Notes: generated by a model not told the origin, from the sequence alone. A stretch of 64,000 bases of DNA from Tangfeifania diversioriginum (GCA_945873105.1 CAMCBW010000029.1:9091-73090); one strand, 5' to 3'. Positions 17,624 to 63,477 are shown, counted from the first letter of the stretch. Numbers and translations: made by a program.

Positions 17624-17668
17624 TTGTTTGGAATGTTTGAAAAGTTTGAAATGTTTGAAATGTTTGAA
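17624..17668. repeat. Tandem 9-nt word array (AATGTTTGA, about 5 copies)
   Basis: ttgtttgg aatgtttga aaagtttga aatgtttga aatgtttga, starting 2 nt after the helicase stop codon. Confidence 0.9.
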
Positions 17669-17722
17669 GGGCAAGTGACGGATCATTGTTTCTAGACAAA
17701 GGGGTGTCACCTCCGGATTGGA

Positions 17723-17730
17723 TAAATTTG
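17723..17730 (+). promoter_or_regulatory. Bacteroidota-type -7 promoter box TAAATTTG
   Basis: Matches TAnnTTTG and lies 9 nt upstream of the 17739 ATG. This implies a very short or absent leader. Confidence 0.4.
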
Positions 17731-17738
17731 TATAAAAT

Positions 17739-18227
17739 ATGGCAAGAAAGATCTTAAATCCTTACCTGACTTCTGGTCGGAAGGATTACCACTGTTTTGG
17801 TTGTTCTCCCAACAATGACAAGGGTTTGCAGTTGAAATTCGAATTGGATGGAGACGAGGTGGTTGCAGTCTGGAATCCCCAAAAGTGGGCAGAAGGCTTT
17901 CGGAATGTTTTGCATGGTGGCATTCAGGCGGCCCTGCTGGATGAGCTCTGCAGCTGGGTCGTCCAGTCGCTTGGCAAGACGGTGGGCGTAACAACCTCTA
18001 TGGAGATCAGTTACAGGAAGGCGGTATTGATCAGTGACGGAGCGATTGTTTTAAGGGCAAAAATGACCGAGCAAACGACCCGGATGGCATTTGTCGAGGG
18101 TCGATTGCTTGGCAACGATGGAACCGTATGCGCTACGGCAAAATGCAAATTCTTTTTATTCCCTGTCGACAAGGCCATGTCTGAGTATGATTATCCGGGG
18201 GCGGAGGCATTTTTTGAAGAAGCATAG
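17739..18227 (+). CDS. PaaI-family hotdog-fold thioesterase
   Basis: 162 aa with an N-terminal CFGCSPNNDKGL motif and the catalytic-region motif VLHGGIQAALLDE. Confidence 0.72.
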   Translation: MARKILNPYLTSGRKDYHCFGCSPNNDKGLQLKFELDGDEVVAVWNPQKWAEGFRNVLHGGIQAALLDELCSWVVQSLGKTVGVTTSMEISYRKAVLISDGAIVLRAKMTEQTTRMAFVEGRLLGNDGTVCATAKCKFFLFPVDKAMSEYDYPGAEAFFEEA

Positions 18228-18326
18228 GGCAGAGAGCATAGGGCAGAGAGCATAGGGCATAGAGTTAGCCCATGCCCCATGCCCCATGCCCCATGCCCCA
18301 CGCTCCATGCCCCACGCCCCATGCCC
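18222..18326. repeat. Inverted pair of tandem word arrays: (GCATAGGGCAGAGA)x3, then (CCCATGC)x8
   Basis: The left arm 18222-18263 begins inside the thioesterase stop codon (TAG at 18225-18227). The right arm 18268-18326 is partly complementary to it (GCATAGGGC versus the reverse complement GCATGGGGC). Confidence 0.85.
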
Positions 18327-18448
18327 TGGTACAAAGCCATTGGCAGCCTTCAGAAACCTTTGCCTAATGTTACAATTGGGTTTGGCAACGATAAAAATTG
18401 CCATACGGAGCGCAAACCAGAATAGTGATAGGAACTCTTCTTTGGACT

Positions 18449-18679
18449 GTCACACCAGAATCGTAGACAATCACTCCTGCTCCATCGAAGGTCATACCTG
18501 AATCATAGACAATCCCTCCTGTTCCATCGAAGGTCGTACCTGATTCGTAGACAGTTATACCTGAATCATTGACAGTCATCCCTGAGTCATAGACAGTCAT
18601 CCCTGAGTCATAGACAGTCATCCCTGAATCGTAGACGGTCACTCCTGCTCCGTGGTAGGTCATACCTGGATCATTGACA
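18449..18679. repeat. 21-bp tandem repeat, 11 units, two alternating subtypes
   Basis: Units such as gtcatccctgagtcatagaca (two exact adjacent copies at 18575-18616) alternate early in the array with atcactcctgctccatcgaag. Only one minus-strand frame is open, giving the 97-aa ORF 18370..18663 with heptads MTVYDSG. Confidence 0.9.
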
Positions 18680-18745
18680 GATACTTGTCATTTCCCGAAG
18701 GGGGGGGTGTCGTTTTGCCCCCTCCAGCCCAATGATTTTTCTTAC

Positions 18746-19486
18746 TTATTGTGGCTGTGGTGTTCCCGGTGTGACGGGCATATCTGCCTCTTTTTTTGAA
18801 ATGCGTCGTACCCGTTTTTTCAGTGCGGCGAGGGTATATTCCTGTTGTTTTACCGCATCCTTGCCCTGGTACAGGATTTTTCCGATTCGTAAAATCTCTG
18901 TTAACTGACTGTTCAGAACGTTTAGGGTTTCAACATTGCTTTGCACCAATGCTTTCCGGTTCGTAAGGATTTGGTACTGCAACTGCCGGTCGGTGTTTAA
19001 GGAAGCATGAGCATTCAGTAGTTTGGTCTCCAGCAATTCGGTAAATCCTTGTTCGGCAAGGGCCGCCTTGTAAGTCGCTATGTTTTTGTTCACCTCTGTC
19101 ATTCGGTCTAGCACCTTTTCCGGATCTCCGTTGTTGATTCCTTTCCGCAACTCAGAGAGTCCGAAATCGGCAGCAGAGAGGTTAATGCTGCTGCCGGCCA
19201 TTTTGAGGTAGCCCCCCAGATGTTTGACATGGTCCAGTACATCATTCATCCCCGAATAGATCCTGTCGGTAATTTTTTTCATCTCGGCGGTCTCCGAAGC
19301 GGGGGAAAGTAATTCTTCAACTTTGGCAATTCCGGATTCGAAAGTAGCCAGGTAGGTTTCGCCCAACTTTGGCGAGTAAGCAGTAAAATCGGCCAGGTCG
19401 CGTCTCAGGCTAATCGCTGAAAACCTGCATAAAACAGCCAATTCTTCGTCTTTGCAATTGTAACTGCGGTTCATGTTCAAGTTCAT
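18746..19486 (-). CDS. Hypothetical protein (helical, no recognised motif)
   Basis: 246-aa ORF with host-like base composition. No catalytic or recombinase motifs were seen. Confidence 0.5.
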   Translation of the reverse strand: MNLNMNRSYNCKDEELAVLCRFSAISLRRDLADFTAYSPKLGETYLATFESGIAKVEELLSPASETAEMKKITDRIYSGMNDVLDHVKHLGGYLKMAGSSINLSAADFGLSELRKGINNGDPEKVLDRMTEVNKNIATYKAALAEQGFTELLETKLLNAHASLNTDRQLQYQILTNRKALVQSNVETLNVLNSQLTEILRIGKILYQGKDAVKQQEYTLAALKKRVRRISKKEADMPVTPGTPQPQ

Positions 19487-20191
19487 TTAAAATAAATTTA
19501 AGGGATTAATAATAAATGTTTGAGAACTATAGGATGGTTAAACCCGTTGGTCAGCGAGTGACTTTAATCCACCTTCTGACATACTTCGCTTAACGTATCA
19601 TTCCGGAGTTGTAGTAAGTTCTGAATCAGCGATGATGGGTAACGCTTGTGTTGAAATTCGAAGGAACCGGATTATTGCAGGGGCCAATTTGACAACCAGG
19701 TAAGCGGTCGGTAGCACAAAGGGCAGCTGAGTGCCGTTTTCTGTATATTAATACCCAAATGGGGCGAGAGGTTACCCTCAAAATGAGAAAAAAACAAAAT
19801 GGTCATTTAGGGCGTTGCCGGAATGCACCTCCTTCATTTCCGTAGCCCGAAGGCTAAGGCTAGTCAGGTCGGTCGAATAACGAAACCGCAACAATCGAAA
19901 TGACATGTATTTCGCAAAATGGTAATTGACTAGCAACGCCATTTATGGCGGTGTTTTTATGGCGTTGACCAAATACACCCCTATTCCGCCAAGGCTTTAG
20001 CCGAAATATTGGCAGTTACCAACCGTGCCCAACCCAGGCATGTCCGGCACATTTTCCCTTTCTAAAGCTTTGGTATTCAAATATTATTAGGTAAGTTTAT
20101 CGTGCCTGTAACACCCAACAAACCTGCCTCAATTTATCGCAAATCACAGTCTAAACCTAGGCTTGTAGTGGGTATATAAGAGCTAGGCGTA

Positions 20192-20962
20192 ATGCTATGT
20201 AACAAAATAACATTAATTGACATGAGAAATTTTAGTGAATTTGAGAAGAAAATAATTAATAAGTTAATTGCTATTGATCCCAAAAATTCAAATGCTGGAA
20301 CTTTCATTGCAGACACAATCCTTGAAAATAGGGGCATTAAGATAGAAGAAGAAGAAAGAATTATATCTCTTTGGTATCTAAAAACTGATAAAAATGCCAT
20401 AAGCGAGTTTTTTGAATTGATATCAGTATTAAACTATTTAGAAAAAAACGATTTAATTTTCATTCATTCAAATCTGGAAAGACCAATAGGGACAAGAGAT
20501 TTTCTTACAAAGAATATTGACCAGCCTTATTTTGACAGCAGAAACGGCGACTTAATGAGTATGCCAATTCCCACTGACATATTTGACCGAATCGTAAGAT
20601 ATTTAAGAAGTTATTTAATTTGTGGGACAGAGATAAAAGTATTAGTTACGAATGAGTTTAAAACACAAGAACAAATAGACCATGAAGCCGAAATGAAAGA
20701 AGCTATTTCGCAGACGAGGCTTTCGAGGTACTCACTTTATGTTGCCTTTGCTGCTTTAGCATTTTCATTTTTATCACCATTAATTTTTGACTCAACAATA
20801 GACAAAACTCAAATAAACAAAATAAACACTGCTGATCAGGCCCAAGTTGACAACTTAGTAGACATTAAAAAATTTCTAAAAGAAAGTATTGACTCAATGC
20901 ATAAACAATCACATAGGCCTAACAGCACTTTTCCAAAAGCGGGGCAGACAAAAGTTAAATGA
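20192..20962 (+). CDS. Hypothetical protein with one C-terminal transmembrane helix (orphan island gene)
   Basis: 256-aa AT-rich ORF with a TM segment (SLYVAFAALAFSFLSPLIF) near the C-terminus. No recognisable motif. The start may be the Met at 20222. Confidence 0.55.
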   Translation: MLCNKITLIDMRNFSEFEKKIINKLIAIDPKNSNAGTFIADTILENRGIKIEEEERIISLWYLKTDKNAISEFFELISVLNYLEKNDLIFIHSNLERPIGTRDFLTKNIDQPYFDSRNGDLMSMPIPTDIFDRIVRYLRSYLICGTEIKVLVTNEFKTQEQIDHEAEMKEAISQTRLSRYSLYVAFAALAFSFLSPLIFDSTIDKTQINKINTADQAQVDNLVDIKKFLKESIDSMHKQSHRPNSTFPKAGQTKVK

Positions 20963-20988
20963 AGATTCGTACAACTAATAAATTTTGT

Positions 20989-21048
20989 GGTAACTTGACA
21001 GGATAGTGTTCTGAAAGCCCCGCCTTCGCCAAGCCGAAAACCGTTATG
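20989..21048 (+). repeat. attC-like spacer J1 (about 60 bp)
   Basis: ggTAACTTGACAGG...GCCCCGCCttcgCCAAGCCGAAAACCGTTAtg. TAAC and GTTA termini, CTTG/CAAG pairing next to the termini, and a GCCCCGCC box. Confidence 0.35.
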
Positions 21049-21142
21049 TGCAATTGTACGACGCTTTGTCGAGCGGTTTTTGGTTGATAAATAGGCTAAA
21101 ATATTTTCATTTGAATTGCATTGATTAGAAGCCATAAAACTT

Positions 21143-21150
21143 TAAATTTG
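21143..21150 (+). promoter_or_regulatory. Bacteroidota-type -7 promoter box TAAATTTG
   Basis: Matches TAnnTTTG, 21 nt upstream of the methyltransferase ATG. Confidence 0.5.
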
Positions 21151-21170
21151 AGATTTAATAAAGTAAATCC

Positions 21171-22148
21171 ATGGAGAGAATAAAATTTATAGATCTATTT
21201 TGCGGAATAGGAGGCTTCAGAACTGCAATGGATCAAGCCTGCATCGAGAATGGACTCATTCCTAACTGTGTGTTTTCATCAGACATTGACACATTTTGCC
21301 AAGACAGCTACGAAGCAAATTTTGGACATAGACCGGCAGGAGACATAACCAAAATCGACGAAAAAGATATACCTGATCACGACATTCTTTTTGCAGGTTT
21401 TCCATGCCAGCCATTCAGTATAATTGGACAAATGCAAGGTTTTAACGATATTCGTGGCACTTTATTCTTTGACATTGCAAGGATTATAAAACATAAAAGA
21501 CCAAAAGCCTTTATCTTAGAAAATGTAAAGCAACTTGTTGGACACGATGGGGGTAAAACACTAAAGACTATCATAAAAACTTTAGAAAAGGAATTAGGTT
21601 ATAATGTGCAATTTGCGGTATTAAATGCACTTGATTACGGACTTCCACAAAAGCGCGAACGTGTTATCATAGTTGGACACCGTGAACCTATAATGTTTAG
21701 TTATCCATCGCCTGTCAGACCTTTTAAACCACTTTCAGAAATCCTTGAAACAAAGGTTGACAAAAAGCATTTGGCATCTGATTACATTGTACAAAAACGC
21801 AAAGACAAACATAATTCGGCTTATCCGCTTTCTATTTGGCACGAGAACAAAGCAGGTAATATTTGCTCATATCCATATTCTTGTGCTTTACGTGCAGGAG
21901 CCTCTTATAATTATTTACTCGTAAATGGAGAAAGACGATTGACTCCAAGAGAAATGCTTCGGTTACAAGGATTCCCAGACAGTTATAAAATAGTAGTAGC
22001 TGATGGACAAGCCAGAAAACAGGCTGGGAATGCTGTTCCTGTTAATATTGTTAAAGCAGTTATTTTAAAATTACTTCCGTTTGTTGCAACCTCATTGGAT
22101 ATGACTTCGGTTTTAAGAGAATATGAAGTAAGCTATGGAAAACGATAA
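21171..22148 (+). CDS. DNA (cytosine-5)-methyltransferase
   Basis: Motif I FIDLFCGIGGF, motif IV FAGFPCQPFS, motif VI ENVKQL, motif VIII QKRERVIIVG, motif IX RRLTPREMLRLQGFPDSY and motif X GNAVPVN. The segment YLLVNGERRLTPRE resembles the M.HhaI-type region before motif IX. Confidence 0.93.
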   Translation: MERIKFIDLFCGIGGFRTAMDQACIENGLIPNCVFSSDIDTFCQDSYEANFGHRPAGDITKIDEKDIPDHDILFAGFPCQPFSIIGQMQGFNDIRGTLFFDIARIIKHKRPKAFILENVKQLVGHDGGKTLKTIIKTLEKELGYNVQFAVLNALDYGLPQKRERVIIVGHREPIMFSYPSPVRPFKPLSEILETKVDKKHLASDYIVQKRKDKHNSAYPLSIWHENKAGNICSYPYSCALRAGASYNYLLVNGERRLTPREMLRLQGFPDSYKIVVADGQARKQAGNAVPVNIVKAVILKLLPFVATSLDMTSVLREYEVSYGKR

Positions 22149-22887: not shown

Positions 22888-22927
22888 CACGCTTAGGAGA
22901 AATCTTAAGAAAAATTAGCAACAGCCC

Positions 22928-23053
22928 ATAACTTCAGCTACCCGTCAAGCGCGGCAGCAGTGGTTTTCGGTGGGCATCTTTCCGCCCGGTCATCTTTTCG
23001 GCTTGACAGGAAATCGCCCGCAATCCGCCCCTGCGTGTAGCTTCCTACTTTAC
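22928..23053 (+). repeat. attC-like spacer J2 (about 126 bp, degenerate 3' end)
   Basis: The 5' end is cATAACttcAGCTAC and the 3' end is GTAGCTtcctacTTTAC. There is an internal 9/10 inverted repeat CCCGTCAAGC (22941-22950) / GCTTGACAGG (23001-23010). It shares TTGACAGG and TTTTCGGCTTG words with J1. Confidence 0.3.
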
Positions 23054-23063
23054 TAGTAAGTAT

Positions 23064-23576: not shown

Positions 23577-23594
23577 TTGGAAGAAATACCTACT

Positions 23595-23723
23595 GGTAAC
23601 AGCACATTTGCAACAGGCTGGGTTTCGTGCTCCGCAAACAGTTTTGTGGTACCGGAAATTCTGTGCTCCGCATCATCATTTGCGGTGAAAAGCCCGCCCA
23701 TCGCAAATCTGCAAAACGTTATG
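23595..23723 (+). repeat. attC-like spacer J3 (about 129 bp)
   Basis: ggTAACagcacATTTGC...AAGCCCGCCcatcGCAAATctgcaaaacGTTAtg, with an internal stem CCGCAAA / TTTGCGG and a duplicated GTGCTCCGCA. Confidence 0.38.
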
Positions 23724-23782
23724 AGTCATAGTCGAGAAAATCATAATCTGAAAACAGTTTCTATATAACGAAACTTTTTATA

Positions 23783-23790
23783 TATCTTTG
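23783..23790 (+). promoter_or_regulatory. Bacteroidota-type -7 promoter box TATCTTTG
   Basis: Matches TAnnTTTG, 21 nt upstream of the toxin ATG. Confidence 0.5.
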
Positions 23791-30397: not shown

Positions 30398-31282
30398 ATG
30401 AAATTTCGTATGAAGACTTTCCTATCGCTCGCTCTCCTTCTAATGTTGTCTTTTGCCCTTTGTGCTCAAAATGGCAAAGTCATTGAATCATTGGTTTTTA
30501 CCGCCAAGTCAGGTTCTCAAATGAAATATTCGGTCTACTTACCGGGGGATTATGCTTTTTCCCAGCGAAGCTATCCCGTTGTCTATTTGCTGCATGGTTA
30601 TTCGGATGACGAAACCGGGTGGATTCAGTTTGGGGAGGCTAACAGCATCGCAGACAAGGGTATCTCAGAAGGCAAGATACCTCCCTGCATTCTGGTTATT
30701 CCGGATGGGAAGGTAACATGGTATTGCAACAGTTTCGATGGTAAGATAAGCTGGGAAGATGTTTTCATCCAGGAATTCATGCCATGGATTGAGAAGGAAT
30801 ACAGAATCAGACAAAAGAAGGAGTTCAGGGCCATCGCAGGACTCTCCATGGGTGGTTATGGCGCACTGAAACTCACCATGAGGCACACAGATCTTTTTTC
30901 GACCTGCATCGCCCTAAGCTCAGGCACATTTACCAACGAAGAGATCCTAAAAATGGCTGATGCAGATTACAATCGTTATTTCTCCGGGTTATTTGGTAAG
31001 AGTTTGCATGGAGAAGCACGTTTGAGCGAGGCCTGGAAAGCCAATAATCCGCTGGACCTGATCCATACTGTACCCATCGAAAAGCTAAAATCGGTCCGAT
31101 TCTGGATCGATTGCGGGGATGATGATTTTCTTTGCAACGGCAACTCACAACTTCATGTTGATATGAAGAAACTGGGCATTCCGCATGAATACCGTGTCAG
31201 GGATGGAAGCCATTCCTGGAGTTACTGGCGAAGTGGATTGGCTACCGGATTGGAGTACATCGGAGAGAAGTTCCACCGCTAA
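30398..31282 (+). CDS. Secreted esterase-family alpha/beta hydrolase (putative esterase / esterase D type)
   Basis: Signal peptide, YPVVYLLHG, nucleophile elbow GLSMGG, and C-terminal DCGDDD and GSHSW blocks. Confidence 0.8.
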   Translation: MKFRMKTFLSLALLLMLSFALCAQNGKVIESLVFTAKSGSQMKYSVYLPGDYAFSQRSYPVVYLLHGYSDDETGWIQFGEANSIADKGISEGKIPPCILVIPDGKVTWYCNSFDGKISWEDVFIQEFMPWIEKEYRIRQKKEFRAIAGLSMGGYGALKLTMRHTDLFSTCIALSSGTFTNEEILKMADADYNRYFSGLFGKSLHGEARLSEAWKANNPLDLIHTVPIEKLKSVRFWIDCGDDDFLCNGNSQLHVDMKKLGIPHEYRVRDGSHSWSYWRSGLATGLEYIGEKFHR

Positions 31283-31284: not shown

Positions 31285-31393
31285 ATTTTGGATTTTGGAT
31301 TTTGGATTTTGGATTGCGCTACGAGCACAATTTTCTTTGAATAATGGGCATATGTTGATGGCCCGTATTCCAAAATCGAAATTCCAAAATCGA
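31285..31393. repeat. Inverted tandem-word arms between convergent genes: (GGATTTT)x4 ... (TTCCAAAATCGAAA)x2
   Basis: The left arm 31285-31315 starts 3 nt after the esterase stop. The right arm 31367-31393 ends 4 nt before the ygiQ stop. The arms are partly complementary (ATTTTGGA / TCCAAAAT). Confidence 0.88.
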
Positions 31394-31396
31394 TAA

Positions 31397-33232
31397 TTAC
31401 TTGTTGAACAGTATCTTCTCCAGATCTGGTCGCTTGATCATGCGCAGTTCTGCGATCAGCTCCTTCCTGAATTCACTTTTGTACCAGAAGAAAAACTTTC
31501 GCTGGGCTTGTTTTTGAGCGGCTGTTTTGGCAGTATATACTTTTTCGAGTGTATACGGGTGATATCCTGAATAATAGATGGCTGTAGCCAGGGTCATGGG
31601 AGTGGGCGTGAAATCCTGGACTTGCTCCAGTTTAAAGTTAAGCGCCTTCGTCTTGGCGGCAAGGTCGGCCATGGATTCCACCGTACTACCCGGATGGCTG
31701 CTGATGAAGTAGGGAATCAGCTGTTGCTTTAGTCCATATTTCTCATTGGCATTGTCAAAGAACTTCTTGAGTTGGGCAAATTGTGAGAAGGAGGGCTTTC
31801 GCATGATCTCCAGCACATCATCAGAGGTATGCTCAGGGGCTACCTTTAATCGGCCGGAGACATGTTTGCCGATTACCTGGTCGAGGTAATCCAGATTTCC
31901 CTTGTTGACTGTATCATCTGCCACCCGGTTGAAAATGATGTCATAACGTATGCCACTTCCGATGAATGCCTTCTTAACCCCCTTTAGTCCTGCGATTTGG
32001 TTATAAAGGTTGGTCATGGGACGATGGTCGGTATTCAGGTTCTTACAGACGGAAGGGAAGATGCAGGAGGGTCTTTTGCAGGATTGGCAAATGGAGAGAT
32101 GGATTCCCTCCATCTTATACATGTTGGCCGACGGACCGCCAATATCCGAAATGTATCCCTTGAAATCAGGCATCTCGGTAACTTTTTCTGCCTCCTTGAG
32201 AACGGAAGCTTCCGATCTGGAGGCAATAAATTTTCCCTGGTGGGCAGAGATGGTACAAAAACCGCAGCCACCAAAACAACCCCTGTGGATGTTGATGGAG
32301 TGCCGGATCATTTCATAGGCGGGAATGGTCCCCTTGCCATGGTATCTTGGATGCGGCAGCCTGGTAAAAGGCAAATCGCTGTAATGGTCTACATCTTCCA
32401 CCGAAAGTGGAGGCCAGGCCGGATTGATGACCACTTTTTGATCCCCGTGCGACTGAAGGAGCCTGATCTCTGGCTCCATTTTGTTGGACTCCTCTTCGAT
32501 AATCTTGAAATTGCGGGCATAGTTGATCTTTTCTTCCCGGCACTGCTCCAGACTGAAAAGTTCGTGGTCTTTCCAGAAGGAATAGGCGGGAATGGTTCGG
32601 TCCTTCTGAACCCGATAGGCAGTCTGGGGAATGTCTGTCATCTCCTGGATCTGAGCTCCGTTTTTAAGCTGGTCAATCATGGAGATCAGGGATTTTTCTC
32701 CCATGCCATAAAATAGCAGATCTGCCTGGCTTTCAATAAGTATACTGGGTTTTAACTGGTCAGACCAATAGTCGTAATGGGTTACCCTTCTGAGTGAGGC
32801 CTCAATACCGCCGATGATCACAGGCACGTCCGGATATAACTTTTTGATGATGTTGGAATAGACAATGGTGGCATAATCCGGACGCGCACCGGCTCTGTCA
32901 CCGGGAGTGTAGGCATCGTTGGACCGTTTTCGCTTGTTCGCGGTATAATGGTTGACCATCGAGTCCATACAGCCCGCTGTAATGGCGAAAAAGAGCCTTG
33001 GCTTCCCCATCTTTTTAAAATCACGCAGATCATCCTGCCAGTTGGGTTGAGGCACGATTGCCACCTTTAACCCTTCACGTTCCAGAATCCTGCCAATCAC
33101 GGCTGCCCCAAAAGAGGGATGGTCTACATAGGCATCCCCGGAGAAGAGTACCACATCGACCTCTTCCCAGCCAAGTGCCCGAACCTCCTTGATGGTGGTG
33201 GGAAGCCAACTGTTCAAATGAAATTCATTCAA
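31397..33232 (-). CDS. ygiQ: YgiQ-family radical SAM protein
   Basis: 611 aa with the radical-SAM cluster motif CFGGCGFC (CxxxCxxC) and the conserved N-terminal B12-like/UPF0313 region (WEEVDVVLFSGDAYVDHPSFG). Confidence 0.88.
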   Translation of the reverse strand: MNEFHLNSWLPTTIKEVRALGWEEVDVVLFSGDAYVDHPSFGAAVIGRILEREGLKVAIVPQPNWQDDLRDFKKMGKPRLFFAITAGCMDSMVNHYTANKRKRSNDAYTPGDRAGARPDYATIVYSNIIKKLYPDVPVIIGGIEASLRRVTHYDYWSDQLKPSILIESQADLLFYGMGEKSLISMIDQLKNGAQIQEMTDIPQTAYRVQKDRTIPAYSFWKDHELFSLEQCREEKINYARNFKIIEEESNKMEPEIRLLQSHGDQKVVINPAWPPLSVEDVDHYSDLPFTRLPHPRYHGKGTIPAYEMIRHSINIHRGCFGGCGFCTISAHQGKFIASRSEASVLKEAEKVTEMPDFKGYISDIGGPSANMYKMEGIHLSICQSCKRPSCIFPSVCKNLNTDHRPMTNLYNQIAGLKGVKKAFIGSGIRYDIIFNRVADDTVNKGNLDYLDQVIGKHVSGRLKVAPEHTSDDVLEIMRKPSFSQFAQLKKFFDNANEKYGLKQQLIPYFISSHPGSTVESMADLAAKTKALNFKLEQVQDFTPTPMTLATAIYYSGYHPYTLEKVYTAKTAAQKQAQRKFFFWYKSEFRKELIAELRMIKRPDLEKILFNK

Positions 33233-37450: not shown

Positions 37451-37484
37451 GCTGAAGTTATAGAAATTAGTTCTTTTATTTACA

Positions 37485-37593
37485 AGTGCCTAGAGTGCCT
37501 AAAGTGTGCTAAAGTGCCTAGAGTACTTAAAAAAGTAAATATTGGGAGTCCAAACTTTAGGCATTCTAGGCACTTTAGTTCACTTTAGTCACT
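37485..37593. repeat. Inverted tandem-word arms, family GTG(C/A)(C/A)CTA(A/G)A
   Basis: The left arm 37485-37526 is agtgcctagagtgcctaaagtgtgctaaagtgcctagagtac. The right arm 37554-37593 is actttaggcattctaggcactttagttcactttagtcact. The right arm contains the nupG stop codon and its last 5 codons. Confidence 0.9.
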
Positions 37594-38969: not shown

Positions 38970-39212
38970 ATGGATATTCAATCAAGAAAAATACATTTTG
39001 TACAAGAATTTCTCCGAGTTACAGACGATGAACTTGTTACTAAACTTGAAAATTTGCTTCGAATTGAAAGAGCGAAGAAATTTAATCTAGAAATGCATCC
39101 GATGTCTTTGAATGAATTTGATGAAATCATCGAAAAATCTGAAGAGGACATTAAAAATGGAAGAGTAATTGATTCAAGAGATATTCTTATTCAAATTGAC
39201 AAATGGAAGTAA
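38970..39212 (+). CDS. Putative antitoxin (small acidic protein upstream of a ParE-like toxin)
   Basis: 80 aa and AT-rich. It overlaps the downstream toxin gene by 10 nt. Confidence 0.6.
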   Translation: MDIQSRKIHFVQEFLRVTDDELVTKLENLLRIERAKKFNLEMHPMSLNEFDEIIEKSEEDIKNGRVIDSRDILIQIDKWK

Positions 39213-39520
39213 AGGTTCTTTGGACTGATACATCCCTTACTCAGCTTCAGGAAATATTTGATTACTATAATTTTAGGGCAAATAGTTCAGTCGCAAGAAA
39301 AATTGTAAAACGATTAGTAGAAAAGTCACTTCTCCTAGAATCAAATCCATTAATTGGAACTTTGGAACCACTGCTTGAAGATAGAATCTTTGAATATCGC
39401 TATTTCGTTGAGCACAATTATAAAATGATCTACAGGTTCACTGATAATATTGTAAGGATTGTTTCAGTATTCGACTGTAGACAAAATCCTGAAATGATTG
39501 GAAATTTTGAAGAGAAATAA
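39203..39520 (+). CDS. parE: ParE/RelE-family toxin
   Basis: 105 aa. The layout W....L.....Y........A..........L...P..G is followed by a RelE/ParE-type beta core (YRYFVEHNYKMIYRFTDNIVRIVSVFDCRQNP). Confidence 0.75.
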   Translation: MEVKVLWTDTSLTQLQEIFDYYNFRANSSVARKIVKRLVEKSLLLESNPLIGTLEPLLEDRIFEYRYFVEHNYKMIYRFTDNIVRIVSVFDCRQNPEMIGNFEEK

Positions 39521-40183: not shown

Positions 40184-40378
40184 AAGTTTAAAGTTGAAAG
40201 GGAAAAGGGGAAAACGCACTGATTATCCTGGCTGATTTCTCCATCAATCTCATCTTTCTTTACCCATCTTACTGTCTTTAACCAAAGCCTTCTTATTCTG
40301 GCTAAAAGTCTACCCAACCTTTAACCTTTAACCTTTAACCTTTATCCTTTAACCTTTATCCTTTAACCTTTAACCTTT
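40184..40378. repeat. Inverted tandem-word arms inside the oxidoreductase operon: (GTTTAAAG-like)x4 ... (CCTTTAAC)x8-9
   Basis: The right arm 40317-40378 consists of 8-nt units and includes the beta-subunit stop codon. The left arm 40184-40214 (aagtttaaagttgaaagggaaaaggggaaaa) is its imperfect complement. About 100 nt separate the arms. Confidence 0.88.
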
Positions 40379-45844: not shown

Positions 45845-45951
45845 GATGAGGAGTAATGAATGATGAGTTATGAGTGATAAGTTATGAGTTATTATTTGAT
45901 TTGTGGTTTGATTAGCAGCGCATTATAACTTATAATTCATAACTCATAACT
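45845..45951. repeat. Inverted tandem-word arms, family TTATGAGT / ACTCATAA
   Basis: The left arm 45845-45893 abuts the ACT-gene start codon. The right arm 45922-45951 lies about 40 nt beyond the paaK stop. Units are about 8 nt. Confidence 0.88.
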
Positions 45952-45991
45952 TGCTGGCCAAAGATCCAATGTATATGTCCACTAAAAATTT

Positions 45992-53872: not shown

Positions 53873-55789
53873 TTAGAGTAGGTAAACAAAAATCAACACC
53901 AGCGCGACAACGCCGCTCACAAATACAAAACCATACTGTTGTACTCTTCCGGATTGAAGTCCCTTGATGTTGAAAGAGCAAAATACCACCAGGTTGGCAA
54001 TGCCGTTCATGGTGCCATCCACGATGTGGCGGTCGAACCAAGCCACTGGCCTGGATATGTAATTGAATATGATTTTCTTGGTAACAAAAAGGTAAACCTC
54101 GTCGATGTAGAATTTCCGGTAGGACCATCGGTAAAGGTGGCTGAATGTTTTGGCAACTGCTGCAGGACGTGAATTTTCGGTCTTGTACATGAGTGTCGCA
54201 ACTGCAATCCCAACCACCCCTATGAGGATCGATGGGGCGGCTATCATCCAGTCGATGTGCGAATCAAAACCCAATCCGTCGGAGGTAACCAGATGATGGA
54301 ATGGCAGAAGTCCGGAGAAAATAGAACCAAAGGCCAGGATCATCAGCGGTATGGTCATCACCAGCGGTGCTTCGTGCGGGGTATGGTGGTAGTGCCTGTC
54401 GTGACCCCAGAAGATACTGTAATAGAGACGGAACATGTAAAAAGCGGTAAGGCCGGCTACCAGGTATTCGATACCGAAGAGAATTTTGTTGGAATGGAAG
54501 GCTGCCACCAGAATTTCGTCCTTGCTGAAAAATCCGGAGAAAGGCGGAATTCCGGCGATGGTAAGGCAGGCGATCAGGAAGGTCATGTGGGTAATGGGCA
54601 GGTATTTTCTCAAACCACCCATTTCGCTCATGTCGTTGCTGTGAACGGCATGGATGACAGCCCCGGCTCCCAGGAACAACAATGCCTTGAACATGGCATG
54701 GGTGAAAAGGTGGAAGTTGGAGGCCATAAATCCCAATCCCTCTTCGCCTCCGTAACCGGATACACCCAGTGAAAGCATCATGTAGCCGATTTGTGACATG
54801 GTGGAAAAGGCCAGCACCCTTTTTATATCTGTCTGTGTGAGTGCAATGACGGCCGCGAAAAGAGAGGTGAAAGCACCTACCCAGGCTACGACCTCGAGTG
54901 CTACAGGACCTCCCAGTGCATAGACCGGAAAGAGGCGGGCAACCAGGTAAACCCCGGCAACCACCATGGTGGCAGCATGGATCAATGCGGAAACCGGCGT
55001 CGGACCCTCCATGGCATCCGGTAACCAGATGTGGAGCGGAAACATGGCCGATTTACCGGCGCCCCCGACGAAGATCAAAATCAAAGCCCAGGTAAGAAGT
55101 GAAAGTCCCATGAAAGCGGCTCCTCCTGCTGAAGAAATCGCCGGACCGTTGGGATCTACCAGGGTTTGAAAATCAAATGTTCCGGTGGTAAATGAGAGAA
55201 TCAGGATACCGATCAGAAACCCAAGGTCGGCGAACCTGGTAACGATAAATGCTTTTTTTGCGGCTGAAAAGGCGCTTGGTTTTTCGTAGTAGTAGCCTAT
55301 CAACAGGAAAGAGGAGACACCCACCAACTCCCAGAAGATGTACATCTGAAACAGATTGGTCGCCAGGACCAAACCCAGCATGGAGAAGCTGAACAATGAC
55401 AAGAAAGAATAAAACCTGGCAAAGCCCCTTTCTCCTTCCATGTATCCAAGGCTGTAAATGTGTACCATGAAAGATACAGTCGATACAACGATTAACATCA
55501 TCACAGAGATTGGGTCTATGAGGATACCCAGGTTAATGGTGAGCTTTTCGGTCAGGTGAAGCCAGGTAATCTCGAAGGCCTTGACAGAAGTATAGGCTGT
55601 TCCATGCACATGGTCAGTGATAAAATACTTAAATGCTGTATAGTAGGAGAGGAAAGTGGCAATGCCCAGTCCTACCGTACCAATCAAGCCACCCAGTTTC
55701 CCTTTCAGTTTGTCTTCGGCCATACCGACGAAGAGAAAAACAAAGAAGGGAATAAGAGGTATTAACAATGTATATGCGTAACTATTCAT
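53873..55789 (-). CDS. nuoL: NADH-quinone oxidoreductase subunit L
   Basis: 638 aa, the longest antiporter-like subunit, with a C-terminal lateral-helix extension. Confidence 0.92.
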   Translation of the reverse strand: MNSYAYTLLIPLIPFFVFLFVGMAEDKLKGKLGGLIGTVGLGIATFLSYYTAFKYFITDHVHGTAYTSVKAFEITWLHLTEKLTINLGILIDPISVMMLIVVSTVSFMVHIYSLGYMEGERGFARFYSFLSLFSFSMLGLVLATNLFQMYIFWELVGVSSFLLIGYYYEKPSAFSAAKKAFIVTRFADLGFLIGILILSFTTGTFDFQTLVDPNGPAISSAGGAAFMGLSLLTWALILIFVGGAGKSAMFPLHIWLPDAMEGPTPVSALIHAATMVVAGVYLVARLFPVYALGGPVALEVVAWVGAFTSLFAAVIALTQTDIKRVLAFSTMSQIGYMMLSLGVSGYGGEEGLGFMASNFHLFTHAMFKALLFLGAGAVIHAVHSNDMSEMGGLRKYLPITHMTFLIACLTIAGIPPFSGFFSKDEILVAAFHSNKILFGIEYLVAGLTAFYMFRLYYSIFWGHDRHYHHTPHEAPLVMTIPLMILAFGSIFSGLLPFHHLVTSDGLGFDSHIDWMIAAPSILIGVVGIAVATLMYKTENSRPAAVAKTFSHLYRWSYRKFYIDEVYLFVTKKIIFNYISRPVAWFDRHIVDGTMNGIANLVVFCSFNIKGLQSGRVQQYGFVFVSGVVALVLIFVYLL

Positions 55790-58305: not shown

Positions 58306-58348
58306 TAGATTTGATGATTTTCGATATAGTCAATCGTGTTAGTACTAA

Positions 58349-59482: not shown

Positions 59483-59486
59483 AAGG

Positions 59487-59942
59487 CTATCGTTCTACTA
59501 TTCTTACTTCGTCTTTAAAATCTTTCCGCAGCGGGAATCCGTAGTCGTCATCCAGGAAAAGCCGGCGCAGGTCAGTATGGTGGTTGAATTTCACCCCCAA
59601 AAGGTCGTAGACCTCCCTTTCGTGGTATTTGGCAGTCTGCCAGACATCACTGACGGTATCGACTTTGGGATCCACACGATCGGCGGTATTTACCTTCAGT
59701 ACCACCATGTGGCGGTGTTTCACCGATTCGAGGTGGTAAACGATCTGCATCGATTCAGGGTAGTCTACTCCGGTGAGGCAAATCAGGTAATCAAATGATA
59801 ACTCCGGCACCCCTTTGAGTTGCACGGCTGTTTCATGCAGATCGGCTGCCTGAACCAGGATTTCCAGGTACTGCTTGCCGGGCTTCACCTCGGCATTAGA
59901 AAACTTACCTGCAAGATAAGCTTGTAGTTCTTCGTTTATCAT
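59487..59942 (-). CDS. nuoC: NADH-quinone oxidoreductase subunit C
   Basis: 151 aa with the W..A.YHEREVYDL.G motif. Confidence 0.9.
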   Translation of the reverse strand: MINEELQAYLAGKFSNAEVKPGKQYLEILVQAADLHETAVQLKGVPELSFDYLICLTGVDYPESMQIVYHLESVKHRHMVVLKVNTADRVDPKVDTVSDVWQTAKYHEREVYDLLGVKFNHHTDLRRLFLDDDYGFPLRKDFKDEVRIVER

Positions 59943-60012
59943 TTAACTTAATATCAGTTTGTTAAGTGATTTATTGTAGGTTTGATAGTGATTCCGGTCA
60001 TGCTGGTTGGCT

Positions 60013-60585
60013 TCAGGGCTGGGGTGCATTCTTCTTCTGTTTTCTGGAGAAATAGCGCTCCCGCTTGATTTTCTTTTGCAGCTGCATCATCCCATACAAC
60101 AACGCCTCAGGCCGCGGAGGGCATCCGGGTACGTAAACATCCACCGGAATAACATGATCGGCACCCCTGACAACTGCATAATTGTTGTAATAGAAGGGAC
60201 CCCCGGAGATGGCACAGCCACCCATGGCAACGACATACTTGGGATCGGCAATCTGATCATACAACCTCTTGAGCACAGGGGCCATTTTGTAATTGATGGT
60301 TCCCGAGATGATGATCAAATCGGCCTGCCGGGGAGTTGCCCGGGCTACCTCCATACCAAACCTGGCCATGTCGTGCCTGGAGGCACCAACGGCCATGAAT
60401 TCAATGGCGCAGCAGCGGGTTCCAAACGTAAGCGGCCACAATGAATTGGAACGTGACCAGTTGATCAAATCATCCAGTTTGGCAAGGATGATGCTTCCAC
60501 CCTCGTATTCGGCCAGGATCGGATAATCGTTGGCCTCGAACTCTTTTTTACTCTTTACTCCCATTTCAATGCATGTTTTTTCCAT
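60013..60585 (-). CDS. nuoB: NADH-quinone oxidoreductase subunit B
   Basis: N2-cluster cysteines ([27 protein letters not shown]). The start may be the Met at 60564. Confidence 0.93.
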
Positions 60586-60905
60586 CCGTAAAACAATCCC
60601 AATCCCAATATGGCAAAGAAGATCAGAATCTCGATAAACCCTGTCATTCCTACTTCTCTCATTACAGTCGCCCAGGGGAAGATAAAGACGGTCTCCACGT
60701 CAAATATCAGGAAGAGAATGGCAAAAAGATAGTACCCGACGGTATATTGGTTCCAGGTTTCTCCAATGGTCTCAATTCCACATTCGTAAGGCTCAAATTT
60801 TGCCGTATTGTACGATGTTGGAGGGACATAACTGGAAAAGACCAGTGCCAAACCAACCAGTGAAATGGCCGTTATGAAGAAAAGTAAGAGTGCACTACTT
60901 TCCAT
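60555..60905 (-). CDS. nuoA: NADH-quinone oxidoreductase subunit A
   Basis: 116 aa with 3 TM segments and the YECG and FLIFDVE motifs. Confidence 0.92.
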
Positions 60906-61189
60906 GTTAAATGGTTTTAATTGTTAATAAGAATTGTTCTAAATAACAGTGTATAAGGAACTTCAACAAACAGCGACAAAAATAGAAATTTATCCTTAAC
61001 CCAATCCCCCGACTTCCGAATTATTTAAAAGTTATTAAAATATCTTAATTAGTAGATACATTGAACCAGGTACCGGGTAGTACAAACAAACACGAAAACA
61101 AGCCCTTGCGGAGTTGAGGAATGGCATGCATTCTGAAAAAAAACTTATGAACAAGATCCGGGATAGTTGTTGATATTGGAGAAAAAGAA

Positions 61190-61262
61190 GTGAACTAAAG
61201 TGACTAAAGTGTACTAAAGTGACTAAAGTGTACTAAAGTGAACTAAAGTGAACTAAAGTGAA
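61190..61262. repeat. Tandem word array (GTGAACTAAA / GTGACTAAA / GTGTACTAAA, 7 units)
   Basis: Seven 9-10 nt units, the same word family as 37485-37593. The array is the reverse complement of the array at 62101-62145 on the other side of the DUF1080 gene. Confidence 0.92.
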
Positions 61263-61331
61263 GGGCATTTGTGGCCAATTGCTAACAGCAAATAGCCCAA
61301 AGTCTAGGTTACTATAAGGAAGAGTGCTGAT

Positions 61332-61931
61332 TTACAGTTCAGTGATCTTCAGATTCTTCCATCGTACCTTGATGCCTCCGCCATCGTGGATCTGAAGGGC
61401 AATGGAACCATTGGCAGCCCCTATTTTCTGATCCGTGAAGTCAGTCATGGAGGTACCATTCAGCCAGGTTTGTACGTGATCACCAACTACTTTGATTCGC
61501 ATGGTATTCCATTCACCCGGTTTGAGTACATTTTCCTTTTCAGGCGGAATCTGAACCAGCCATCCGCGGCCATAGGACTCATAGATTCCTCCTGAATCAT
61601 GGTCTTTTGGGGCAACTTCACACTGCCAGCCGGCTATTTTGGTGCCGGTAACCGTCGAGCGGAAAAAGATGCCGCTGTTGCCATTGCTCTCCTGGAGAAA
61701 ATCGCAGGTGAGGTCAAAATCCTTGTAGAATTTCTCGGTGGCCAGGTAGCCGTATTTCTTGTCAGGACCGCTTTCGCACACCAGGTTTTTGTTGTCGACG
61801 TACCATTTCTCGGTACCATAGATCTTCCATCCGGTCAGGTCCTTCCCGTTGAACAATTTGGTTTTCTTGCCGAAAGATTGGGAAATTGCCAGAACAAAGA
61901 TCATTCCCAGTATTAACAATTGTTTCTTCAT
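61332..61931 (-). CDS. DUF1080 (3-keto-disaccharide hydrolase-like, concanavalin-type) secreted protein
   Basis: Signal peptide followed by LFNGKDLTGWKIYG, NSGIFFRS, EVAP... and IALQIHDGG blocks typical of DUF1080. Confidence 0.75.
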   Translation of the reverse strand: MKKQLLILGMIFVLAISQSFGKKTKLFNGKDLTGWKIYGTEKWYVDNKNLVCESGPDKKYGYLATEKFYKDFDLTCDFLQESNGNSGIFFRSTVTGTKIAGWQCEVAPKDHDSGGIYESYGRGWLVQIPPEKENVLKPGEWNTMRIKVVGDHVQTWLNGTSMTDFTDQKIGAANGSIALQIHDGGGIKVRWKNLKITEL

Positions 61932-62012
61932 GAAATCCTGTATTAATTTAGTCGGACTATAAAATGTTGGAGATGCTAATTTCTATGCTATCAGTCATTT
62001 ACAATAAGTGTC

Positions 62013-62145
62013 TCGCAAAGGCGCAAAGAGCGCAAAGAAATAGGCAAAATGAGGTTATTCAGGCACTAGTCATCTCCCACCATCAACAAGCGTAGCGAAG
62101 TACTTTAGGCATTTTAGTTCACTCTAGCGCACTTTAGGCACTTTC
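62013..62145. repeat. Two tandem word arrays: (GCGCAAAG)x3 at 62013-62037 and (CACTTTAGG-type)x4-5 at 62101-62145
   Basis: The first is tcgcaaaggcgcaaagagcgcaaag. The second is tactttaggcattttagttcactctagcgcactttaggcac, which ends 1 nt before the stop of the TIM-barrel gene. Confidence 0.88.
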
Positions 62146-63069
62146 TTAAAAATTGTCCACCTTCCGGTAAGCCTCAATCAATGCCAGCTCACCCTCTTTC
62201 CCTTTGACACTGCGGCCATGCTCCATGCAGAGCGGATCATCATAGCCCTTGCTTTGGATGAACTTGAAGATGTTGGTGAAGTTGATCTCTCCTGTTCCTG
62301 GCTCTTTCCTGCCGGGATTGTCCCCCAGGTGAAGTGCGGCGATCTCGCTCCAGCAACCTTCCAGGTTGGGAATCAGATTGCCCTCTGTAATCTGTTGGTG
62401 GTAAAGGTCATCCACGATCTTGCAGGCGGGACTGTTCACCCCCCTGCAGATGGCATAGGTCTGGGGCATATCGGTCAGAAACAGTCCGGGATGGTTGAAT
62501 TTGTTGAGTGGTTCCAGCACAATGGTCATTCCTCCCTGGAGGGCGATTTCACTCAGTTCGCGCAAAATATCTATCACGTTGGCAGTTTGGTAACCCCAAT
62601 CCATCTTTTCGTTGTAACGTCCCGGAACCATCAGCGCCCATTTGAGACCGGTTCGCTGGCAGACTTCAACACCTGCCTTGACCTTGTCGACCAGCATCTG
62701 GCGGATTTCTGCATTTTTAAGCACCATCGACTCCTTGCTGAAATCAGCATAGAGGACAAAGGGTCCCATCTTCATGTTGAGGCGTGTCATCTCTGCGGTG
62801 ATCTTAGCCTGGTCTTCTACCGGCCGGCCCATGAAACCATTGTCGAACATGGCCCTGAATCCCTGATCGTTGCAGAATTTGATCTGATCGATCGGATCTT
62901 TGCCTGCCAGTTCATTGAAGGTCCCAAATCCGGGTGCATACCTCAATTTGAAAAATGCGCTGTTGGAGGGTTGGGCCTCCTGAAAACCGGGCATTCCGAA
63001 GAGGGAGCTGCCAGCACTGGTCAATACAGCGGCAGCGGCAGATTTTTGTATGAAATTTCTTCTTAGCAT
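62146..63069 (-). CDS. Xylose-isomerase-like TIM-barrel protein (sugar phosphate isomerase/epimerase, hydroxypyruvate-isomerase-like) with a Tat-type signal
   Basis: 307 aa. Twin-arginine N-terminus (MLRRNFIQKSAAAAVLTSAGS), and LEPLN and HLGD-type metal-binding blocks. Confidence 0.78.
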   Translation of the reverse strand: MLRRNFIQKSAAAAVLTSAGSSLFGMPGFQEAQPSNSAFFKLRYAPGFGTFNELAGKDPIDQIKFCNDQGFRAMFDNGFMGRPVEDQAKITAEMTRLNMKMGPFVLYADFSKESMVLKNAEIRQMLVDKVKAGVEVCQRTGLKWALMVPGRYNEKMDWGYQTANVIDILRELSEIALQGGMTIVLEPLNKFNHPGLFLTDMPQTYAICRGVNSPACKIVDDLYHQQITEGNLIPNLEGCWSEIAALHLGDNPGRKEPGTGEINFTNIFKFIQSKGYDDPLCMEHGRSVKGKEGELALIEAYRKVDNF

Positions 63070-63162
63070 AAGTTATTGGTTGTTTAATGGTCAATGCAAT
63101 TCATTCCGCGTGAACCTGTTGCTCAGCGGATCTTTCGTTGAATTGAGCCAATGGATGGATAT

Positions 63163-63378
63163 TTAGAAAATCAAAGATTCTTTCGGAACGATGATCCACA
63201 TGATCAGATAGGCCAGTACCCCGGTACCTCCGATCAGAACTGCCAATACAAAGATCAGTCGGATGATGGTTGGATCTATTTCAAAATAATCGGCAAGTCC
63301 TCCGCCTACTCCAGCAAGCATCTTGTCGCTGACCGATCTTTTCAATCGCTTGGGGCCCTCTTTTTGAATAATTTCCAT
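63163..63378 (-). CDS. PspC-domain membrane protein
   Basis: 71 aa with R....DKMLAGVGGGLADYFEIDPTIIRLIFVL plus one TM segment. Confidence 0.8.
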   Translation of the reverse strand: MEIIQKEGPKRLKRSVSDKMLAGVGGGLADYFEIDPTIIRLIFVLAVLIGGTGVLAYLIMWIIVPKESLIF

Positions 63379-63382
63379 GGTA

Positions 63383-63477
63383 AGTGATTAGTTATGAGTT
63401 ATAAGTTATGAGTTATAAGAAAACCAGTCTATTTGTGTTTTAAATTTTCACATTTTCACATTTTCCAATTTCCACAT
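63383..63477. repeat. Two tandem word arrays: TTATGAGT family (63383-63419) and ATTTTCAC family (63444-63477)
   Basis: The first is agtgattagttatgagttataagttatgagttataag, 5 nt from the PspC start codon. The second is aaattttcacattttcacattttccaatttccac, ending 3 nt before the stop of ORF 63480. Confidence 0.88.

Follow-up and report, generated by a model that had tools for sequence, protein, structure and literature searches.

The question raised by this locus is what the short tandem repeats are that lie between its genes. The window analysed is the whole stretch of 64,000 nucleotides from Tangfeifania diversioriginum (GCA_945873105.1 CAMCBW010000029.1:9091-73090), and it contains nine intergenic sites with arrays of 7-14-nt words, designated a to i in order of position (near 17.6, 18.2, 31.3, 37.5, 40.2, 45.9, 61.2, 62.1 and 63.4 kb). 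We give a probability of about one half to the reading that these arrays are the arms, or solo arms, of gene-less foldback elements residing in intergenic spacers and resembling the intervening sequences (IVS) of 23S rRNA. In full-length form, an element would consist of a PF05635/TIGR02436 four-helix-bundle gene with an inverted arm on either side, an arm being a tandem row of 3-10 words of 7-10 nt, and would be placed between co-directional operon genes, often starting in or beside the upstream stop codon. The copies of the window would lack the gene and would be hairpins or half-hairpins of 45-250 nt.

The arrays are intergenic without exception in the window. Tandem Repeats Finder (TRF; period 5-20, at least 2.8 copies) shows 14 short-period arrays at the nine sites, that is, at every place named by the first-pass annotation of this DNA. 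With a simple gene map, 14 of 14 lie within the 7,121 nt of intergenic DNA (11% of the window) and none in the 56.9 kb of coding DNA, and 100 segment-wise dinucleotide shuffles give an expectation of 0.01 intergenic arrays. The counts cover the 64-kb window and about 1.45 Mb of related loci (numbered with the prefix L); those of the relatives are indicative only, since they include some orthologous sites and come from a crude gene caller. There, 100 of 114 arrays are intergenic, in DNA of which spacers make up 14%, and 55 of these 100 have period 7. Array density is patchy: most loci have no array at all, while the genus of the window and certain contigs of Draconibacterium and Maribellus are rich in them. 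The units are contiguous and show no spacers, so the layout is not that of a CRISPR, as had been stated.

The link between such arrays and a gene family comes from the related and metagenome loci. The foldback of L110 encloses a gene that matches PF05635, the '23S rRNA-intervening sequence protein' family, at E = 2.5e-21, and also TIGR02436, 'four helix bundle protein'. Among all fetched loci, iterative profile searching shows ten PF05635 sites, and 10 of 10 are bracketed by tandem-word arms: in four Prolixibacteraceae loci the gene stands between korD and korA and its arms are AAATAAG/CTTATTT heptamers, and in six metagenome loci (AGTGCCTAA)n precedes the gene and (CACTTTAGG)n follows it, these being the CACTTTAG words also found in the window. 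Unbiased picks were PF05635 homologs from two protein searches (4,058 and 7,993 matches, E up to 1e-10, mostly short contigs), whose contigs were fetched. They give five operon sites: korD-korA, hisC-hisB, porP/sprF-PKD/OmpA gene, sucA-sucB and hdrB-like-hdrA-like. All of them show arms, a gene co-oriented with its neighbours and a complementary arm after the gene, and the 5' arm begins at or in the upstream stop codon; the end of the gene upstream in L238, ...GAGAGTGCCTAG, is itself a word. Altogether, 11 of 11 distinct PF05635 sites examined sit between arms of this kind. L228 and L232 encode an identical PF05635 protein at the same site, with a 5' arm of ten and three words, respectively. 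At least five reverse-complement 8-mers are shared by 19 of 20 PF05635 flank pairs, against 4.6% of 1,178 control genes (p = 4e-15), the 20 pairs being not all independent and reducing to 11 distinct sites, five of them unbiased. The flanks also show periodicity at lags of 7-10 (p about 1e-11). RNAduplex energies between gene flanks were tried and set aside as uninformative (control median -52.6 kcal/mol), and the shared reverse-complement 8-mers were used instead. Within the window, the direct family link to PF05635 elements is that of the CACTTTAG sites only (d, g and h). No paper joining PF05635 to tandem-word arms was found in the searched library, and the link appears to be undescribed. 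Beside one of these genes, L216 (1080-2380) and L218 (1-1840) show many gene-less foldback units of about 115 nt in tandem, with AATAAGG/CCTTATT arms, which flank the PF05635 gene upstream of korA; the cluster resembles a bacterial interspersed mosaic element (BIME) and probably breaks assemblies.

The words themselves are shared among sites and species. The first-pass annotation had stated that the word differs from locus to locus, and on this ground had set the arrays apart from repetitive extragenic palindromic sequences (REPs) and miniature transposable elements with inverted repeats (MITEs); neither the statement nor the argument stands. The core CACTTTAG/CTAAAGTG is common to sites d, g and h, and a AGTTATGAGTTATAAG stretch is common to f and i (93.8% identity over 32 nt), with AGTTATG words at both. 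Word families also recur at non-orthologous sites and in other species. Thus, window positions 62092-62143 are 96% identical over 52 nt, non-repeat bases included, to L007 14787-14837, which is the ortholog of site d; the ATTTTCAC array of site i matches a different site in L004, and the GGATTTT array of site c matches the ortholog of site f in L003. Foldbacks with CACTTTAG words are also present between korD and korA in another clade (KorA identity 74-76%). A metagenome scan for CACTTTAGGCACTYTAG matched at least 120 contigs; 80 loci with a GC content of 30-60% were analysed, and 97 of the 97 matches in them lie in arrays. The arrays of this family, of which the 64-kb window contains three copies, show a constant 8-nt core and a variable linker of 1-2 nt, with period 9-10. 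Wherever a partner arm exists, the arm order is 5'-(CCTAAAGTG)n...(CACTTTAGG)n-3' (38 cases versus 0), an order that is not forced by symmetry. This dispersal of word families is REP- or MITE-like behaviour. No paper on the exact array words was found in the searched library.

The 14-kb contig L131 (1-14253) contains five hairpins of the CACTTTAG family, four within about 30 nt of a called stop and the fifth after an uncalled open reading frame (ORF); the three whose full sequence was inspected close on AAAGTTATAACTTT-type loops. Two genes of the same contig, at 1123-3048 (-) and 3423-5288 (-), have a near-identical upstream region of 100 nt in common. In L102, L108, L117, L118, L124 and L128 the CACTTTAG array is inside a longer conserved module, a larger dispersed element, with AACCATG or GAATCCA arrays upstream and ...CTCTACAAATCAGCTACTTTTTATGCAAAACAAACCCAAT downstream. 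Viral contigs show both words (16 and 19 stretches) and no PF05635 gene in the fetched surrounding stretches, so they give no evidence for a phage vector. Two predicted viral contigs, L243 (13326-13466) and L247 (10509-10631), show at least 14 perfect GTGCCTAAA copies up to the end of the fetched stretch, and these may mark a terminal repeat, the border of a prophage or the end of an assembly.

The same vocabulary could be understood as landing pads for a protein, either an OB-fold RNA binder (S1, Csp) or CsrA, which would tune translation of the downstream gene, or a DNA binder reading words placed one helical turn apart. The constant core, short linker and period of 9-10 nt of the CACTTTAG family are in line with this, and Bacteroidota are not known to make strong use of Shine-Dalgarno sequences. 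The TAACTCA word is also one base from TAACTGA, and its arrays end 1, 11 and 4 nt before the starts of three unrelated genes in the 'forward' orientation, the layout described for TAACTGA by MacGregor, who proposed a binder-tuned translation (PMC4679880). However, the survey shows more than 50 different words, and dozens of unrelated words in one lineage are beyond the reading of one protein; no candidate binder is present among the window genes, and most arrays are beside stops, not starts. Landing pads are, in our opinion, a quite improbable general explanation.

Comparison of orthologous sites suggests that the arms are maintained. The window was placed in the Prolixibacteraceae (Bacteroidota) by a protein-anchored scan with one genome per species, in which KorA of the nearest species is 91-93% identical. 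Closer relatives came from exact-protein look-ups: sister species with about 90% nucleotide identity (L083-L088, L093) and two contigs with about 95% (L089, L090); the look-ups for korC and the thioesterase gave no exact match. Third codon positions of the window are 77.7% identical to those of the sister species. At site d, 121 of 124 nt of the spacer are identical to the sister species and the three changes are all in the loop, which leaves 0 changes in about 80 nt of arms against about 18 expected at the synonymous rate. An origin of this conservation in a recombination tract was rejected, since the adjoining coding DNA diverges at the normal rate. At site f, the 5' arm is identical in 38 of 38 nt and the 3' arm differs by an indel of 14 nt (two words). 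Alignment folding, with only four or five sequences, shows double changes that preserve pairing in 4 of 35 pairs at d and 7 of 20 at f. Since the site d arms are unchanged and the double changes keep the pairing, the arms at these two testable sites are conserved far more strongly than synonymous positions and are under constraint, in sequence over short times and in pairing over longer times. The orthologs of sites c, d and f show a foldback in each species, with words that differ between species. At the ortholog of d in L008 (7888-8613), the 726-nt spacer consists of a decayed foldback followed by an apparent small toxin-antitoxin module, a second kind of cargo.

Number of units, by contrast with pairing, varies. 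The slippage proposed in the first-pass annotation is borne out by whole-unit differences at three arrays (f, g and i). Besides the indel of f, site g has one 10-nt unit fewer in the sister species L093. At site i, a 14-nt (two-word) indel at 63389/90 separates the window from the metagenome contig ERZ27280308 k141_767445 of ENA, which belongs to the window's own population; it is the sole indel in 31.7 kb aligned, where only six clustered substitutions are found, and it lies 11 nt upstream of a PspC-domain gene. Differences of this kind between close relatives, and within one population, are what contingency loci would show, in which changes in unit number switch adjacent genes on and off as in phase variation. 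This role is very hard to credit: the two assemblies of the population do not differ in the arrays of d, e and f, the flanking genes are housekeeping genes (kor, nuo, amino-acid and CoA metabolism), the arrays are outside coding frames, and Mrazek's survey, as far as it is reported in the citing literature, tied 7-10-nt periods to non-pathogens rather than to phase variation. The six substitutions mentioned are at 55748-55769, spaced by 3 or 6 nt within 22 nt of the 5' end of nuoL, and look like a short recombination or gene-conversion patch.

With respect to gene ends, the first-pass annotation had placed most arrays against stop or start codons. Seven of the nine sites touch or contain a stop and two arrays are 1 and 11 nt from a start; the relation is a tendency and not a rule, as the median distance in relatives is 79 nt. 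A stop codon lies within the array at 18225-27, 31397-99, 37575-77 and 40370-72, and 1-2 nt from it at 17622, 31282, 62146 and 63480. In relatives, 13 of 77 arrays are 5 nt or less from a stop codon (4.0 expected, p = 1.5e-4), and divergent, promoter-only spacers are depleted, with 5 arrays against about 18 expected from spacer length. The claim that the arrays usually form inverted arm pairs is only partly right and stands for no more than about four of the nine sites, with strong folding z at b, c and d and a weak one at f. The single arrays of a and g show no inverted partner, and the two arrays of i are not complementary to each other. A strict reverse-complement partner within 250 nt is present for 28 of 86 arrays of relatives, against 0.4 expected.

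Hairpins following stops are also the layout of REP-type host elements, whose task, with no IVS-like element involved, would be to end or dampen transcription, to shield the upstream mRNA against 3' exonucleases or to hold up ribosomes at termination. The enrichment beside stops and the depletion in divergent spacers agree with this, as do convergent-pair foldbacks with both arms touching stops (site c; also in L004) and the L131 copies, 4 of 5 of them close to a called stop; some copies are then followed by TTTTT or TTTTGT. According to Liang, Rudd and Deutscher in 2015, REPs of E. coli at 15 nt or less from a stop codon reportedly affect translation. The terminator function that the first-pass annotation had listed as a possibility finds no match: no array fits the canonical pattern, and terminator-like matches in the 17-64 kb scanned are at the shuffle expectation. 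Intrinsic terminators (short GC-rich stem, 3-8-nt loop, T run) were therefore rejected, as no terminator-like match overlaps an array and the foldback loops are of 25-100 nt. Many copies are inside operons whose downstream genes need expression (korB-korC, sucA-sucB, hisC-hisB), the sense strand is not favoured, and several arrays are at gene 5' ends (f, i, and h in L093). Host 3'-end elements are, taken together, an unlikely account, and one that overlaps with the IVS-like foldback elements rather than excluding them.

If the arrays are IVS-like elements, they would be co-transcribed with their host operons, because they sit in operons and the full copies are co-oriented with the neighbours. 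Their paired arms could form a long imperfect double-stranded RNA stem, which by analogy with rRNA IVS is probably cut by RNase III, or would at least be a structured boundary between cistrons. Cutting would separate cistrons without terminating transcription, and the elements would not be terminators. Among the functions suggested by the first-pass annotation, a role in RNA processing or stability remains the most plausible. The elements would spread and, by replication slippage, grow and shrink, and the match between arms would be kept by selection, possibly with hairpin-templated repair.

Several observations weigh against these IVS-like foldback elements. Neither the window nor its genus-mates contain a PF05635 gene or remnant (the best match, in L008 with E = 0.003, was rejected because it lies antisense to an FGGY kinase gene). 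Of the 11 PF05635 sites, six came to light by way of the array pattern and only five are unbiased. The six window sites without CACTTTAG words would belong to the elements by shared architecture, that is, by analogy. At e and h folding is no better than in shuffles, and the second arm is degenerate or decayed. The 28 foldbacks in tandem context show no strand bias at the RNA level (sense 17 versus antisense 11, p = 0.57) and antisense is more stable than sense at d and f; since both strands fold equally well, there is no specific sign of selection on RNA rather than DNA. Neither target-site duplication nor clean insertion junction was found in filled-versus-empty comparisons or at the outer ends of metagenome copies. 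The korB-korC spacer, finally, fits better with amplification in place than with insertion, because the word of site e equals the native gene end and is also present in array-less species. Where about 60 relatives have a spacer of about 10-35 nt, that of the window, L006, L007 and L008 measures 170-245 nt and is each time a foldback whose first word starts in the korB stop and equals the gene's own end. The gene-end words are AAAGGTTAA in the window and CAAGGATAA in L008, both also found in species without arrays. Window and L008 share an interior GAGATGA-type array, which indicates that the island is old. The turnover of this spacer, by contrast, speaks for the elements: its length is 12 nt in the sister species (L083-86) and 230 nt in the window, and in L090, at 95% nucleotide identity, it measures 143 nt and holds another array, of GGATTTT type.

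A rival view is that the arrays are a neutral by-product, with neither function nor mobility: slippage-prone replication in some lineages would expand any 7-10-nt word of a spacer, and partners would come from hairpin-templated strand switching. The arrays would then end at start and stop codons because coding DNA purges them. This agrees with whole-unit indels, the patchy density among related species, a site e word equal to the native korB end in each species, more than 50 words and folding without strand bias; period 7 is also dominant, as it is in the long simple-sequence repeats surveyed by Mrazek in the account given in PMC4679880. On the other hand, it does not predict the absence of changes in the site d arms, nor the recurrence of identical word families in other genera, at sites that are not orthologous and across contigs of 30-60% GC, nor the polarity fixed at 38:0 and the tight association with one gene family, PF05635. 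A purely neutral origin is thus rather doubtful, and slippage overlaps with the IVS-like foldback reading rather than excluding it.

A wider proposal can be made only tentatively. Stand-alone PF05635 (Avd/S23p-like) genes with their tandem-word inverted arms may be a widespread, unnamed class of operon-resident IVS-like elements, and the heptamer arrays of Bacteroidota, perhaps also those of cyanobacteria and Beggiatoaceae, may be its gene-less derivatives or footprints. In this proposal the arms would be recognised or propagated by the PF05635 protein, a pentamer that binds nucleic acids, possibly with a reverse transcriptase at its side, as in diversity-generating retroelements, where Avd, a member of PF05635, is the partner of that enzyme (PMC10053308). 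Microhomology with stop-codon contexts such as CTAAAG or AAGGNTAA is a candidate target preference. The recurrent value of about 4.4 copies was considered as one word per pentamer subunit and rejected, since it is just above the TRF score threshold and reflects detection.

Among the individual sites, site a (17625-17668, +) shows a single array of TGTTTGAAA with 4.9 copies and no inverted partner, with a fold z of about 0. A UvrD/PD-(D/E)XK helicase-nuclease gene has its stop (17620-17622) 2 nt ahead of the array, and a 4HBT thioesterase gene starts 70 nt after it. Site b (18221-18326) is a foldback in which 3.1 copies of the 14-mer GCATAGGGCAGAGA (18221-18264) face 8.3 copies of CCCATGC (18269-18326). 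The TAG of the thioesterase gene, at 18225-27, is inside the GCATAGGGCAGAGA array, and the z of the minimum free energy is -5.0 for the + strand and, at -80.9 kcal/mol, -7.4 for the - strand. Site c (31285-31398) is a foldback between convergent genes, an esterase (+) and a radical-SAM gene (-). Its arms are GGATTTT with 4.4 copies (31285-31315), 2 nt past the stop at 31282, and TTCCAAAATCGA(A/T)A with 2.2 copies (31367-31398), overlapping the stop at 31397-99; the fold z is -5.0/-5.4, and its word family recurs at other sites in L003, L090 and L005.

Site d (37484-37593, -) is a CACTTTAG-family foldback going from an MFS transporter gene to an ADP-forming acyl-CoA synthetase gene, with arrays of 9-mers at 37484-37524 (4.4 copies) and 37554-37593 (4.3 copies). 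In the sense direction, the 5' arm holds the MFS stop (37575-77) and encodes the last four residues, and 33 nt separate the 3' arm from the next start; the fold z is -6.0/-7.2 and the consensus stem has 35 pairs. Site e (40184-40378, -), the 230-nt spacer within korA-korB-korC, contains nine copies of AAAGGTT/AAAGGAT (AACCTTT on the other strand) in an array at 40316-40378 that begins in the korB stop (40370-72), followed by an interior of about 100 nt with degenerate words and by a decayed complementary arm at 40184-40215. Site f (45846-45952, -) is a foldback of AGTTATG/CATAACT words (TAACTCA family) with arrays at 45846-45892 and 45923-45952. Its sense 3' arm reaches 1 nt before the start codon (45842-44) of an ACT-domain gene, and its fold z is only -1.8.

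Site g (61188-61262, -) is a single array with 7.7 copies of the 10-mer GTGAACTAAA, of the CACTTTAG family, located in the long leader of nuoA, 69 nt past the stop of a 3-keto-disaccharide hydrolase gene. In the same leader, L093 shows 14 extra nt (TTAGCTATTAGCTT, 1083-1096) beside TTAGCAATTGG, apparently a heptamer array in the making; in the window there is one copy only. Site h (62014-62144, -) contains a CACTTTAG-family array (62102-62144) 1 nt from the stop of an AP_endonuc_2 gene (62146) and 2.9 copies of GCGCAAAG (62014-62038), complementary only in part; the element is retained upstream of the hydrolase gene in L093 despite a different upstream neighbour. Site i (63390-63478, -) contains two unrelated arrays: ATTTTCAC with 4.4 copies (63444-63478), 1 nt from the stop at 63480, and AGTTATG/AGTTATA with four copies (63390-63419), which ends 11 nt before the start (63378) of the PspC-domain gene. 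The ATTTTCAC family makes a foldback at another site in L004.

The window has a GC content of 45% and contains tightly packed housekeeping genes, among them the nuo operon, korD-korA-korB-korC (2-oxoacid:ferredoxin oxidoreductase), aromatic amino-acid genes, and the genes of the ADP-forming acyl-CoA synthetase and the UvrD-type helicase-nuclease. No rRNA, tRNA or Rfam family was found in it, and all of its array copies are between protein-coding genes, not in helix 25 or 45 of 23S rRNA. Between korC and the MFS gene, a ParE-toxin/antitoxin pair is located at 38970-39520 (+). This is a variable islet beside two array sites, since the sister species (L083-L085) have a GntR-Band_7-hypothetical trio in place of the ParE pair. 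Near site b, a tandem repeat with a 21/42-nt period (18449-18680, 5.5 copies of 42 nt) coincides with a minus-strand ORF of 97 aa (18370-18663), which has no Pfam match and would encode (V)YDSGMT(V)-type heptapeptide repeats. A small hairpin with a G8 homopolymer (18689-18709, G8 at 18699-18706) is located between this ORF and one of 246 aa (18746-19486, -). A frameshift fusion across the G8 tract was rejected, as a one-base slip leaves a stop codon between the two ORFs.

Arrays of this general class, such as the short tandemly repeated repetitive (STRR) sequences, the long simple-sequence repeats (LSSR) and the TAACTGA arrays, have been on record since 1990, but no origin or function has found acceptance, and the stand-alone 'four helix bundle' (PF05635) genes, which number in the thousands, are just as unexplained. 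If both were one element, the two problems could be addressed through word binding, RNase III cutting and array density versus gene copy number. Elements inside core operons (kor, suc, his, nuo) could influence how these operons are expressed. Metagenome assemblies also appear to break at them, most contigs with a PF05635 gene being shorter than 2 kb, and their strain-level variation in word number could serve for typing.

In comparison with known systems, REP, BIME and REPIN sequences (Bertels and Rainey, 2011; PMC3116915) are similarly abundant extragenic palindromes, often just past stops, with inverted hairpin doublets and clusters such as those of L216 and L218. The elements described here differ in having no conserved GTAG head, arms made of tandem words in variable number, and PF05635 as the only cargo gene seen. 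No RAYT or transposase was found among the genes annotated around the arrays, no genome-wide search having been made. Arms comparable to those of MITEs are present, but without target-site duplication and with PF05635, not transposase, as the only cargo seen. The Foldback (FB) transposons of Drosophila have long inverted arms composed of short tandem repeats, with variable arm length. They are alike in the build of the arms, and differ as eukaryotic elements of kilobase size with unrelated sequences and mechanism.

The cyanobacterial STRR had been proposed as the nearest analogue and belong to the same descriptive class of heptamer-dominated long simple-sequence repeats, period 7 being that of 55 of the 100 intergenic arrays of relatives. 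In the summaries of Mazel (1990) and Mrazek (2007) given in PMC4679880 and PMC4692102, repeats with 5-11-nt units are likewise tandem heptamers in intergenic locations, with many word families and a patchy phylogeny. The arrays of the window are from a different phylum and of different words, and show, in addition, arms under purifying selection, compensatory change and a relative that carries a gene. The earlier remark that no description existed for Bacteroidota needs correction: intergenic TAACTGA and other heptamer arrays have been reported in five Bacteroidetes, TAACTGA direct repeats being present also in Beggiatoaceae and Cyanobacteria, with shorter, repeat-free spacers in close relatives (MacGregor, 2015; PMC4679880). 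Those arrays are, as here, a few nt from starts in fixed orientation or overlap stops, and the window word TAACTCA is one base from TAACTGA, with the same layout at three genes. The published set shows one indirect repeat among 170 sets, a single word and no PF05635 link, whereas inverted pairs are common and words are many here (PMC4679880). The GGGAATC arrays of Xanthomonas (Rehm, 2015; PMC4692102) form 70-75 convergent inverted pairs of heptamer arrays, intergenic as here, in which position and pair type are kept between species while length and sequence vary. Their single word is G-rich and quadruplex-prone, and the words here are varied and mostly AT-rich. The array class is therefore known, in part also from Bacteroidota, and what sets these arrays apart is the evidence for selection on arms, the shared vocabulary and, above all, the PF05635/IVS connection.

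The 23S rRNA IVS with S23p/PF05635 ORF (Salmonella, Leptospira and Coxiella; PMC4990558) differ in being sited in helix 25 or 45, whereas the elements here are between protein-coding operon genes and have arms built of tandem words. They are excised by RNase III, a step that is only proposed for the elements here. The window copies have no ORF, and elements with the same words elsewhere carry PF05635. In Coxiella, the IVS shows a stem of inverted repeats around the S23p ORF and strain-variable tandem heptamers upstream of the ORF start (PMC4990558). The rRNA IVS are embedded in, and co-oriented with, the host transcript, as the elements here would be, and neither kind has transposase genes. 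A stem is found at b, c and d (z from -5 to -7), and in full-length copies here, as in the 23S rRNA IVS, a terminal inverted-repeat stem encloses the PF05635 ORF.

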